A stretch of 17,535 bases of DNA from a virus: UHGV virus genome UHGV-0122804; one strand, written 5' to 3'. Shown in pieces: positions 9,927 to 11,456 of the stretch. Numbering within the stretch: the stretch's first letter is position 1; each line of letters starts with the position of its first letter. Below the pieces are notes generated by a model. That model saw nothing but the letters and a program-made list of their open reading frames with translations. It had not been told where the DNA came from and did not search any database. A program made the position numbers and the translations under genes.

Positions 9927-11030
9927 ATGAAAAATAGCTTTGACAGAGCACGCGCTGCGGAGAACACCTCAAAAGAGGCGATTGAGTATCTCGAAAGAGC
10001 ATCTCAAATGCAGGCCGTTATGATCTCGCAGGTCAGCAATGACATGAGATTCTCGGACGCATTCATGTTATTCACTCGCTTATCTCTGCTGATAACAAGA
10101 CGTCGGCCAGAGATCGCTGTTCATTGTATTTTGATACATGTTTTGCCGCACATTGCCGATGTAAAAGTAAGTGACATTAATAGGTTCATGGTGAACCAAC
10201 TGGTCAACCCACTAATACTGGATGGCAAAATTGTTATGGGCCGCCGCGTTTTCTCTCTGATGAAGCAGTTCCTTAGCTGGTGCGCCTTCCAGGGGATGAT
10301 AGACGTGTCACCGTTAAACGATATGTCACTTAACAAAGTTGCCGGTGGCGCAAAGCCCACACCTCGCGAGCGGAAGCTGACCGACGCAGAGGTATGGGTG
10401 TTCTGGAATATATGGGACTACTTCAATGTGTGCGCTGGTACAAAATGGGCGGCCAGGCTATGTCTTGTATCCGCAAGACGACCTGACGAAGTACTGCGGG
10501 CTAAAAAAAGTGAGTTCAACCTCCAGCGTGGGGTTTGGAATCAAGGCAAGAGAAACAAATCAGCTCGTGAGCATTCGCTGCCTTTAAGCACATTAATGCG
10601 CACATGCATTGAAGAGTTATTCGAATATGGTAAAGGCAGCCAGTGGCTTGTGCCTTCGAATAAAAAAATCGGGAAAGACCTTCCTATGTCTAAAGTGGCA
10701 ATAGCCCAGGCATTACGTCGTATTCTGGAACGACCAGAACTGATGGAGCTTGAGCCATTTACACCCCGAGATTTGCGCCGTACTGCGCGTAGTTACTTCC
10801 CAGCATTAGGCATAAGCCAGGAGGTATCACGTAAAATCATGAACCACAGTCTTGAGGGGATAGATCGGGTCTACGACCGGCACGATTATATGGACGAGAT
10901 GCGAGACGCCTTAGAAAGTTTCTCGACGTACATCGCATCAATCGTAGAGCAACCGGATTTAGACGAAATTGACCACAAATTTAAGGGAGATCGTCTATCA
11001 ACAGAGCTTATTCGTGTAAATTTTTCATAG
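9927..11030 (+). CDS. int: P4-type tyrosine recombinase/integrase, apparently without the N-terminal arm-binding domain
   Basis: Catalytic blocks ARRPDEVLRAKKSEF (box I Arg), REHSLPL, TPRDLRRTARS (R-x-x-R) and NHSLEGIDRVYDRHDYMDEMR (His and nucleophilic Tyr). Upstream core-binding-like region, but the first 60-70 aa look nothing like an arm-binding domain. Confidence 0.85.
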   Translation: MKNSFDRARAAENTSKEAIEYLERASQMQAVMISQVSNDMRFSDAFMLFTRLSLLITRRRPEIAVHCILIHVLPHIADVKVSDINRFMVNQLVNPLILDGKIVMGRRVFSLMKQFLSWCAFQGMIDVSPLNDMSLNKVAGGAKPTPRERKLTDAEVWVFWNIWDYFNVCAGTKWAARLCLVSARRPDEVLRAKKSEFNLQRGVWNQGKRNKSAREHSLPLSTLMRTCIEELFEYGKGSQWLVPSNKKIGKDLPMSKVAIAQALRRILERPELMELEPFTPRDLRRTARSYFPALGISQEVSRKIMNHSLEGIDRVYDRHDYMDEMRDALESFSTYIASIVEQPDLDEIDHKFKGDRLSTELIRVNFS

Positions 11031-11411
11031 AGACTTTATGGCCTCAACAACCTTTTGTGATGCGCCTTTCTCTTTACCGAATCGCTCGTTATATGCAGCA
11101 AGAACCTGTTTTTCGTCCTCGTTAAGAGGAGCAGTGCCTTCTTTGTATAAAAATGCTGCGAGTTCGGGTTGGCGTTCTTCCAGCACCATCATCATAAGAC
11201 GACTTGGCTCAATGCCCAGTGCCAGCGCCAGCGGACGAACCTTATCGATAGGCAAAGGAATTTTGCCGCTTTTAATTAAAGAAAGGTTGTTGGCGTTTTT
11301 ATACCCAATTGTTTTGGCTATCTGGGCCTGGCTCATAGGTGAGGATTCAATCAACCCTGCGATAAAAGCAGCATAGCGACTTTCTATAAATTCAATCTTG
11401 TTGTCAGACAT
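11025..11411 (-). CDS. XRE-family helix-turn-helix transcriptional regulator (128 aa)
   Basis: HTH segment SQAQIAKTIGYKNANNLSLIKSGK. SD aaagg 9 nt before the ATG. Convergent with int and overlaps it by 6 nt. Confidence 0.75.
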   Translation of the reverse strand: MSDNKIEFIESRYAAFIAGLIESSPMSQAQIAKTIGYKNANNLSLIKSGKIPLPIDKVRPLALALGIEPSRLMMMVLEERQPELAAFLYKEGTAPLNEDEKQVLAAYNERFGKEKGASQKVVEAIKSL

Positions 11412-11442
11412 TGTTACAACCTTTGCGCGTTCAATTCTCTCT

Positions 11443-11456
11443 GGTAAGTGCTTACC
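11443..11456. promoter_or_regulatory. Palindrome GGTAAG-tg-CTTACC upstream of the XRE gene; candidate operator
   Basis: 6-bp perfect inverted arms 32-45 nt upstream of the XRE start codon (- strand). Confidence 0.35.

Follow-up and report, generated by a model that had tools for sequence, protein, structure and literature searches.

In virus genome UHGV-0122804, of which a stretch of 17,535 nucleotides was analysed (in the following the window), a tyrosine recombinase gene (int) and a convergent gene encoding an XRE-type helix-turn-helix (HTH) regulator are situated, together with a divergent open reading frame (ORF) of 70 amino acids (aa; orf70), between a glutaredoxin gene and cobT/cobS-like genes. 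With a probability of roughly 65%, this region represents the module by which an SSU5-type phage-plasmid controls lysogeny and plasmid maintenance, comprising an XRE repressor, a site-specific recombinase and SOS control. An earlier note on this DNA had listed int with a convergent HTH gene and overlapping 3' ends, a palindrome with 6-bp arms at 11443-11456 upstream of the regulator, the divergent ORF at 11662-11874 and the location between the glutaredoxin and cobT/cobS-like genes; all of these were recovered, the palindrome exactly and the overlap as 6 bp. Its comparison to the int-repressor control region of temperate elements gained support, as the element is a phage-plasmid and the XRE protein has the same sequence as CYRAN_45, for which expression in lysogens is documented. 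Both a lysogeny-like switch and a plasmid-maintenance function, as considered in that note, fit a phage-plasmid whose int region is restricted to plasmids in Escherichia coli genomes. Features beyond its list are a 33-bp site at 9796-9828, a LexA box at 9881-9900 and a variable cargo region left of the site.

In the proposed mechanism the 128-aa XRE protein would act as the prophage (immunity) repressor. Its dimer would bind the GGTAAGTGCTTACC palindrome at the start of its own promoter, probably resulting in autoregulation, and the protein would, directly or indirectly, silence the rightward unit composed of the 70-aa ORF followed by cobT-cobS-dnaE. Int would use the 33-bp site about 100 bp upstream of its own start codon as substrate, and both together would resolve plasmid multimers in a Cre/loxP-like manner rather than mediate chromosomal integration; circularisation of incoming phage DNA may be a further role of Int. 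Due to the LexA box over the int promoter, transcription of the recombinase gene would rise in the SOS response.

SSU5-type phage-plasmids are common, include pMT1 of Yersinia pestis and the pHCM2-like plasmids of Salmonella, and carry resistance genes. No worked-out account of lysogeny upkeep and DNA-damage sensing in these elements was found in the literature searched. With the repressor and its operator, the LexA-controlled recombinase promoter and the 33-bp recombination site, a set of testable elements is now listed.

Gene order and the XRE regulator

The genes of the module and its flanks are as follows.

9468-9716: glutaredoxin gene, left flank of the module
9927-11030, plus strand: int, tyrosine recombinase of 367 aa (Pfam, PHROG)
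11025-11411, minus strand: XRE-type HTH regulator of 128 aa, with a 6-bp tail-to-tail overlap with int
11662-11874, plus strand: divergent 70-aa ORF (phrog_2627, E 5e-40), conserved in relatives
11973-14081: CobT-like gene, right flank of the module
14177-15412: CobS-like gene, right flank of the module

The best megablast match of positions 9700-12000 was Escherichia phage Cyrano (98.6% identity), followed by three further E. coli phage-plasmids at 92-98% and by five Klebsiella phage-plasmids at 74% over the int part alone. Cyrano is the 108-kb plasmid pLF82 of E. coli LF82, an SSU5-type phage-plasmid that is maintained as a low-copy plasmid prophage with 5.5 copies per cell (PMC9928086). The window carries genes typical of such an element, which encode a DnaB-like helicase, a primase, a ligase, tRNA-Asn, PhoH, a gp49-family protein, glutaredoxin, CobT-like and CobS-like proteins and DnaE.

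The order int, convergent small HTH gene, divergent 70-aa ORF, cobT, cobS and dnaE was observed in Cyrano, PhiR41_1 and Klebsiella pJN2-26, and likewise in Y. pestis pMT1, a pHCM2-like Salmonella plasmid, an Enterobacter plasmid and a divergent E. coli plasmid. The same order is kept in Xenorhabdus, Providencia and a second Klebsiella lineage, in which Int shares 44-58% identity and the convergent gene encodes an XRE homologue of 39-48% identity. Seven genera (Escherichia, Klebsiella, Yersinia, Salmonella, Enterobacter, Xenorhabdus and Providencia) thus keep the module at one position. Since its position is constant across lineages, the module is, as judged from gene order, part of the core of the SSU5-type family rather than the remnant of an inserted element.

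The sequences of the XRE protein and of CYRAN_45 of Cyrano are 100% identical. In LF82 lysogens grown in LB, this putative repressor is transcribed approximately 10-fold above the prophage background (PMC9928086), and it is the sole annotated regulator among the Cyrano genes that exceed the background more than 5-fold in lysogens (Table 1, PMC9928086). Its structure model (pLDDT 72) comprises a five-helix XRE domain followed by a helical C-terminus and superposes on C.AhdI, 434 Cro and P22 c2 at 1.5-1.9 Å over 61-63 alignment columns; HigA was also returned by Foldseek, and the protein matches phrog_8 "transcriptional regulator" with an E value of 1.3e-11. Sequence searches of the PDB with the XRE protein and orf70 gave nothing usable. 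Neither a Pfam search nor the model revealed an S24 (LexA-like) self-cleavage domain in the XRE protein, and therefore DNA damage must reach the repressor by another route. The protein family is narrow: at identities of at least 55%, its members are confined to SSU5-type phage-plasmids and are located essentially all on contigs of about 100-116 kb. From expression, fold and context we infer that the XRE protein is the prophage repressor.

The control elements around the regulator gene were assigned as follows.

11443-11456: operator-like palindrome GGTAAG-TG-CTTACC, 32-45 nt upstream of the regulator ATG, conserved in 8 of 8 relatives
11458-11485, minus strand: predicted XRE promoter TTTACA, 16-nt spacer, TAATAT (9 of 12 matches in the promoter scan), conserved in the alignment
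11503-11516: second, imperfect operator-like copy GATAGGCACTTAAA, upstream of the -35 hexamer and 60 bp from the first; an inverted repeat that matches the first at 10 of 14 positions
11584-11625, plus strand: two tandem 21-bp direct repeats TGATAT-N10-AGTAT in a conserved spacer block upstream of orf70
11887-11919, plus strand: hairpin between orf70 and cobT, -18.3 kcal/mol, z -3.95, no U tract

The palindrome is embedded in a 45-bp block (TGGTAAGTRCTTACYGATATTAC...GGTTGTAAAG) that is conserved in eight aligned relatives, while most of the remaining spacer has diverged. Taken alone, a 6-2-6 palindrome is unremarkable, with approximately 0.3 occurrences estimated by chance in a 250-bp spacer if several spacings are allowed. 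GGTAAG hexamers occur four times within 190 bp of the spacer and 13 times in the whole window as compared to 5.4 expected, a number that none of 200 shuffles reached. The weight of the palindrome is thus given by the conservation of the block and the enrichment of GGTAAG, not by the palindrome alone. The XRE promoter is the only good promoter match on its strand, and due to its location directly downstream of the -10 hexamer the palindrome covers the likely transcription start of the regulator gene. The second operator-like copy matches TAAGTNCTTA with one mismatch, and just its ATAGGCA half is kept in relatives.

Among the closer relatives the helix-turn-helix region of the XRE protein is almost invariant. 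This invariance matches that of the operator and, as far as can be read from the alignments, points to a single immunity type shared by Escherichia, Klebsiella, Yersinia, Salmonella and Enterobacter. In the distant lineages, the recognition helix of the XRE homologue differs, and the spacers hold TAAG..CTTA-type palindromes in another layout; TAAG-NN-CTTA-type palindromes recur beside XRE homologues of 39-48% identity.

The 70-aa ORF always accompanies the XRE gene, and both were lost in phage SSU5. Searches of Pfam, NCBIfam and the PDB gave no match for orf70, which was not HTH or Cro-like by any search. In Xenorhabdus and Providencia, an ORF of equal size is found at the corresponding position, with marginal sequence similarity (E 0.009 and 4e-5 over approximately 30 residues). 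A promoter scan for a sigma-70 consensus promoter of orf70 gave no hit. The tandem repeats at 11584-11625 presumably mark the rightward promoter or regulatory region and may be the binding site of a second regulator or part of an unconventional promoter. The hairpin at 11887-11919 may be an attenuator, a processing site or a partial stop; a hairpin of other sequence occupies the same place before cobT in SSU5. In macrophages, orf70 RNA increases approximately 90-fold and cobT RNA approximately 8-fold (S1 Table, PMC9928086), a difference that fits a partial stop at this hairpin.

The recombinase, its 33-bp site and probable SOS control

Int matches Pfam Phage_integrase (PF00589) with 39.5 bits at a cut-off of 27.1 and phrog_1 "integrase" with an E value of 1e-46, and the catalytic residues R185, K211, R284, H307 and Y316 are kept in 43 homologues. 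The AlphaFold model (pLDDT 86.3) comprises core-binding and catalytic domains in a two-domain clamp fold with an all-helical N-terminal half. Its best Foldseek match is lambda Int residues 75-356 (E 2e-7), followed by Tn1549 Int, Xer and IntI, with E values from 2e-7 to 3e-4 over all of these; Cre follows far behind with 0.014 or worse. A sequence search of the PDB with phmmer retrieved nothing. A weak Foldseek match to the recombinase-fold phage repressor 9rgl is only a lead, by analogy, to the idea that recombinase-fold proteins can act as DNA-binding regulators.

The arm-binding domain PF13356 (DUF4102) gave no match in Int. It is missing in all listed members of the family (at least 42% identity to Int) and present in the next-closest outgroups (at most 34%). 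The family is coherent, belongs to the Enterobacterales, mostly comprises proteins of 340-380 aa and also occurs outside phage-plasmids, namely in Chimaeribacter and on a 507-kb Pantoea replicon. As judged by sequence, Int is a distant offshoot of the P4-type integrases and a simple tyrosine recombinase without an arm-binding domain. The label "P4-type" given in the earlier note is consequently appropriate only in the sense of a distant relationship (33.6 bits for NCBIfam PRK09692 at a cut-off of 434); the missing arm-binding domain and the lack of a chromosomal copy in E. coli speak against a P4-type integrative function. Among 5,426 complete E. coli genomes the int region was found in 252, at 255 places, all of them on plasmids (0/255 chromosomal), and on these grounds chromosomal integration was rejected. 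It is this absence from chromosomes that leads to the Cre/loxP-like reading for a plasmid prophage. Int is annotated as "integrase" in Cyrano, and a persistent tyrosine recombinase has already been noted for the SSU5 group, with neither site nor regulation mentioned (PMC7969092).

Upstream of int, the following sequences related to the putative recombination site were identified.

9778-9795: conserved A-rich flank (ATTCAAAAAAC...), directly left of the 33-bp site; homology to Cyrano and Klebsiella pJN2-26 resumes at 9778
9796-9828: putative 33-bp recombination site AATGATTCCATAC-CTACTAT-GTATGGAATCATT, with perfect 13-bp inverted arms and an asymmetric 7-bp spacer (9809-9815), assigned by conservation

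Copies of the arm elsewhere in the window are these.

4714-4728, plus strand: orphan half-site 1, ATGATTCCATACATC, start codon and first codons of a 50-aa ORF
5710-5724, plus strand: orphan half-site 2, ATGATTCCATACATC, intergenic, approximately 200 bp upstream of tRNA-Asn
10533-10545, minus strand: degenerate arm copy CTTGATTCCAAAC inside int (sequence match)
15843-15857, minus strand: orphan half-site 3, ATGATTCCATACATC, inside dnaE on the opposite strand (codons D-V-W-N-H)

In eight relatives the arms of the site are identical, whereas the spacer reads CTACTAT, TTGGTAG, CTATTAA, TTGTAAG or, in PhiR41_1, the inverted ATAGTAG. A scan of IMG/VR retrieved 114 stretches that fit the site pattern; in the 80 loci examined, the arms occur without variation and with 13 spacers in total, and a similar A-rich box is situated left of the site in most IMG/VR relatives. 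In all relatives the spacer has a length of 7 bp. Int homologues of 56-61% identity in Chimaeribacter and several IMG/VR lineages come with identical arms; in Chimaeribacter these arms are located 46 bp upstream of int genes at 57% identity, within 8-kb loci in which no XRE, orf70 or cobT homologue was found and the neighbours of int are metabolic genes. On the 507-kb Pantoea replicon, int stands alone, still with a symmetric-arm site just upstream. At a distance of 40-130 bp upstream of int homologues at 44-61% identity, the same or symmetrically changed arms are situated, and the change on both arms proceeds from ATGATTCCATAC to GTGATTCCATAC (Int 58% identity) and TGACTCCAGAC (Int 44-48%). 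In a single scan of genome contigs, the site was found exclusively beside int homologues. Because the arms are fixed and the spacer is free, the site travels with int and the arms co-vary with Int, the site pairs with the recombinase; the gene-site pairing is well supported by these comparisons, and from it we infer a reaction of Int at the site and a putative role in multimer resolution.

In four lineage pairs, the spacer occurs in both orientations relative to int (CTACTAT/ATAGTAG, CTATTAA/TTAATAG, CTATAGA/TCTATAG and TTATATA/TATATAA), one of which comprises close relatives with the same flanks on both sides. It is known that mutation can invert the loop between perfect inverted repeats. That spacer inversion is tolerated suggests that the site can do without asymmetric flanking sites, a property shared with lox-type sites but not with lambda-type attP.

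Two other functions of the 33-bp palindrome were considered. An XRE operator was rejected, since the palindrome accompanies int where no XRE homologue is nearby and since its length is far beyond that of the operators of small HTH dimers. A function purely as RNA hairpin is unlikely due to the invariant arm sequence, the spacer fixed at 7 bp and the conservation of orphan copies that do not pair.

In the complete Cyrano genome, the arm 12-mer is confined to the three orphan places and the full site, all within approximately 6 kb of int, and every orphan half-site faces the full site. The relatives have kept these copies, among them SSU5, in which int is missing. The half-site inside dnaE occurs in 22 of the 23 IMG/VR relatives that reach this position, and half-site 2 shows the same A-to-G change as the arms in the Klebsiella type-2 relatives. 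In case of the degenerate copy inside int, the sequence is one base off the arm in Klebsiella, Yersinia, Salmonella and Enterobacter relatives (19/59 loci). An inversion switch between half-sites 1 and 3, which share the spacer ATCTCAT in inverted orientation here, was rejected due to differing spacers in Klebsiella, Yersinia and SSU5. Literature searches with the arm sequences returned unrelated primers only. In the literature searched, the coverage of which is incomplete, neither the 33-bp site nor the LexA box nor the orphan copies came up, and the site is apparently undescribed. If active, Int and its site would provide a new, simple and presumably orthogonal recombination tool with natural variants in two arm families and at least 13 spacers.

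Two elements between the site and the int start codon point to SOS control.

9853-9881, plus strand: predicted int promoter, TTGATC (9853-9858), 17-nt spacer, TAATAT (9876-9881), read from the sequence
9881-9900: predicted LexA (SOS) box TACTGTTTACTTATACAGTG, with CTGT-N8-ACAG at 9883-9898, overlapping the -10 hexamer and the start region of the int promoter

Both promoter hexamers are kept in eight relatives; with 8 of 12 matches they are below the threshold of the promoter scan. The LexA box is the sole CTGT-N8-ACAG in the window. Its CTGT and ACAG recur in 8 of 8 relatives and 67 of 76 IMG/VR loci, where the bases between them vary; no LexA box is present at int in Xenorhabdus, Providencia, Pantoea and Chimaeribacter. 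A crude weighted scan of the 108-kb Cyrano genome gave two strong LexA-like sites with scores of 19.5 and 20.0, as compared to at most 16.75 elsewhere. The second of these (OV696614.1 89275-89294) is situated upstream of CYRAN_98, which encodes a UmuD/HumD-like S24 peptidase of 129 aa.

From LB to 6 h in macrophages, the log2 FPKM (fragments per kilobase per million) of int rises from 5.6 to 10.3, i.e., approximately 25-fold, in parallel to that of CYRAN_98 (7.2 to 12.2, approximately 32-fold), whereas the RNAs of helicase, primase and dnaE remain essentially flat (S1 Table, PMC9928086). Cyrano virions increase 39-fold after ciprofloxacin (PMC9928086), and other SSU5-like elements respond to mitomycin C (PMC9600943). 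SOS control of int is thus suggested by its promoter sequence and consistent with the published transcriptome. LF82 is said, with reference to Demarre et al. 2019, to depend on the SOS response inside macrophages.

Points against the module, alternative readings and the cargo hotspot

Several observations weigh against a repressor-resolvase module under SOS control. All protein-DNA pairings are deduced from conservation and co-variation, and symmetric arm changes are also expected from an RNA stem-loop. Box II of Int has the form R-x-x-R (R281, R284) instead of the usual H-x-x-R, and for the XRE protein Pfam HTH_19 stays below its cut-off (19.7 versus 30.2 bits). No conserved operator copy is present at the rightward promoter, lineage-specific half-sites being the only ones near the rightward unit. 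Repression by LexA is not an obvious placement for a resolvase that would be needed in stable inheritance. Basal int expression in lysogens is approximately 5-fold above background (S1 Table, PMC9928086) and may be enough for resolution.

An extension of the control module, which adds to it rather than replaces it, is an antisense switch triggered by the SOS response. LexA cleavage would fire the int promoter, the int transcript would run antisense through the repressor gene, and collision or RNA pairing would lower the repressor and lead to induction. The 3' ends of int and the XRE gene are shared in every phage-plasmid lineage examined, and the tail-to-tail arrangement with zero or negative spacing is kept even in relatives with Int at 44-58% identity. 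A terminator scan and folding revealed no convincing terminator after int or, on the minus strand, after the XRE gene, and therefore each transcript must enter the other gene; a terminator-like hairpin at 11251-11267 on the plus strand inside the XRE gene is weak, and the surrounding fold is unremarkable (z -1.29). Moreover, the repressor lacks an S24 domain, yet Cyrano is induced 39-fold by ciprofloxacin, and the only two strong LexA boxes of its genome belong to int and the UmuD-like S24 peptidase gene. Between 1 h and 6 h in macrophages, int increases 2.6-fold and orf70 4.3-fold while XRE decreases 1.4-fold. However, from LB to macrophages XRE RNA goes up, not down, in RNA-seq data that are possibly not strand-specific, and the convergent relatives of Xenorhabdus and Providencia have no LexA box. 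Furthermore, in spite of the approximately 25-fold rise of int in macrophages, no Cyrano virions were detected and the replication genes were silent; therefore high int transcription is insufficient for induction. Considering both sides, the switch appears unlikely.

It is tempting to speculate, although we regard it as improbable, that the whole prophage senses the SOS response through the int promoter, which would lower repressor output, and that induced Int would also bind the conserved orphan half-sites at the start codon of the small ORF, upstream of the tRNA and inside dnaE. If so, DNA damage, plasmid resolution and the choice between lysis and lysogeny would be linked through a single enzyme and a single promoter, in what is the commonest phage-plasmid family among the Enterobacteriaceae.

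Left of the site, an intrinsic terminator forms the left limit of what is here a cargo-free gap.

9721-9740, plus strand: intrinsic terminator of the glutaredoxin operon, 8-bp stem followed by a T run (terminator scan)

The distance from this terminator to the site is 55 bp, and homology to Klebsiella phage pJN2-26 ends at 9746 and resumes at 9778. In relatives, diverse genes pointing either way are located here: YafO-type toxin-antitoxin genes in some, three unknown ORFs in another, a colicin DNase with its immunity gene plus ParE/Phd, and Tn3-related fragments in another. In pMT1, the F1 capsule operon caf1R-caf1M-caf1A-caf1 (NC_004838.1 77118-82246) is situated directly left of the site (locus 20877-20907) and int, and in PhiR41_1 a different chaperone-usher fimbrial operon occupies the same position (locus 13414-18108). 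The Cyrano cargo includes the ORF CYRAN_43, which is expressed 723-fold above background (PMC9928086); it must have its own promoter. Clustering of the flanks (-400 to -30) of 71 IMG/VR loci gave 25 clusters that are unrelated to one another. On comparative grounds, the DNA directly left of the 33-bp site is the cargo hotspot of the family, and a hotspot beside the site explains the location of the F1 capsule operon, toxin-antitoxin genes and colicin in relatives.

This variability, the fact that the homology breaks exactly at the left arm in PhiR41_1, pMT1 and pP59A-2, and a cargo that includes toxin-antitoxin genes, colicin, fimbrial operon and caf1 capsule operon are in agreement with a true integrase or integron-like capture enzyme, for which the 33-bp site would be an attP or attI for integration into other replicons or cargo uptake. 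The LexA control of int would then resemble that of integron integrases, which Guerin et al. 2009 reportedly described. In PhiR41_1, an extra exact arm copy (locus 12622-12633) is present at the far, left end of the 5.9-kb fimbrial cargo, beside an insertion sequence (IS) remnant and a truncated ligase gene. PhiR41_1 is, however, the only examined cargo bracketed by arm sequences: with two mismatches allowed, no second arm-like sequence bounding the cargo was found in 6 of 7 cargo regions, and integron-like cassettes were rejected for this reason. In Cyrano and Klebsiella, the homology right of the cargo resumes 18 bp outside the arm, i.e., the cargo boundary is not in the spacer. No attC-like sites or shared outward promoter were noticed, no formal attC search having been made. 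Cointegrate formation at the site was rejected as well, as in both large cointegrate plasmids examined (240 and 324 kb) the site still has its normal neighbours, with Tn3-like or transposase genes elsewhere in the loci. Together with the lack of chromosomal copies at 255 places in E. coli, these observations render an integrating or capturing enzyme unlikely.

The XRE protein could also be merely a local regulator of int, orf70 or itself, the master lysogeny repressor being encoded elsewhere in the genome. Its conserved operator is situated solely at its own promoter, Cyrano has other annotated regulators (CYRAN_37, CYRAN_114 and CYRAN_123), and the label "repressor" in the literature is explicitly putative (PMC9928086). 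Against this, no other annotated regulator is among the genes more than 5-fold above background in lysogens, the gene is divergent from the replication operon, as is typical of immunity repressors, and the free-living phage SSU5 lost exactly this module. We therefore regard a merely local function as doubtful and retain the XRE protein as candidate immunity repressor.

In SSU5, tRNA-Asn runs directly into cobT. Comparison to a Salmonella plasmid with flanks of 97.8% and 94.6% identity revealed a single clean 7.5-kb deletion, which takes out phoH through glutaredoxin, the cargo, the 33-bp site, int, the XRE gene and the 70-aa ORF and ends 21 bp past the latter (junction at locus coordinates 8643-8674 of SSU5 NC_018843.1; counterpart 2679-10213 in the Salmonella plasmid). 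As indicated by this alignment, the SSU5 state is a deletion, recent relative to the 95-98% identical plasmids, and not ancestral. Loss of exactly this block in a plaque-forming phage fits a lysogeny function that is dispensable for lytic growth, and SSU5, the type phage of the family, may have become repressor-less by this deletion. A decaying remnant of a foreign integrative element, as the earlier note had considered and as the absence from SSU5 and the occurrence of the recombinase family outside phage-plasmids might suggest, is highly improbable, since gene-order comparison found the module in place in the relatives, at one position in seven genera and with the SSU5 deletion as the exception, and since its reading frames are intact, the catalytic residues conserved and the genes transcribed.

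Some further observations concern neighbouring loci. Between tRNA-Asn and phoH, a 529-aa ORF (6273-7862, minus strand) matches phrog_13820, has no Pfam domain and shows by eye several hydrophobic stretches in its N-terminus. At the same place Cyrano carries two extra tRNAs and other small ORFs, and due to this difference the tRNA-Asn/phoH interval constitutes a second variable region. Antisense to the 3' end of phoH (8678-8872, minus strand), a sub-threshold Rfam match to the Yersinia antisense small RNA Ysr251 was obtained (59.6 bits at a gathering score of 100, E 2e-13), while an Rfam search of 9700-12000 returned no RNA family. In the Xenorhabdus relative, the CobS-like AAA+ gene (locus coordinates 9481-11110) encodes a 773-aa product with a LAGLIDADG domain, which suggests an intein or a homing-endonuclease insertion.

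Comparison with known systems

A LexA-controlled simple recombinase gene overlapping an immunity repressor gene is a notable combination, each component of which has a well-known counterpart. For the recombinase and its site, these are Cre/loxP of the phage-plasmid P1, Dre/rox, Vika/vox and ResD/rfsF of F, a plasmid resolvase of the lambda Int family. As in case of Cre/loxP, the host element is a plasmid prophage that was never found integrated, 13-bp inverted arms surround a short asymmetric spacer near the recombinase gene, an arm-binding domain is missing, and the arms are fixed while the spacer is free to vary. Unlike in Cre/loxP, the spacer is 7 bp instead of 8 bp, the recombination activity is predicted, the int promoter has a LexA box, int overlaps the repressor gene tail to tail, and there are exact orphan half-sites to the left and right within 6 kb; in its fold, Int resembles the core-binding and catalytic domains of lambda Int most closely, and not Cre.

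The regulator resembles those of the lambdoid and P22 immunity regions in its five-helix XRE-type HTH fold, its expression in the lysogen, the palindromic operator-like site overlapping its own promoter and the divergent early unit leading to replication genes. It differs from lambda CI by the missing C-terminal S24 domain and thus the lack of RecA-stimulated self-cleavage. In contrast to lambdoid cro, the divergent gene encodes a 70-aa protein that is not HTH or Cro-like, and in contrast to both immunity regions there is no conserved operator at the rightward promoter and the protein family is confined to SSU5-type elements.

Known LexA-controlled inputs to switches and recombinases are Tum of phage 186, AntC of N15, the lambda oop antisense RNA and the integron integrase IntI. 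With Tum, AntC and oop the module shares a LexA box at the promoter of a gene beside the immunity repressor gene and a prophage that is SOS-inducible without a self-cleaving repressor. Here, however, the LexA-controlled product is a recombinase and no recognisable antirepressor, as opposed to Tum and AntC, and, as opposed to oop, the antisense effect on the repressor is hypothetical. The likeness to integrons consists in a LexA-controlled gene that encodes a tyrosine recombinase and is situated beside variable cargo.

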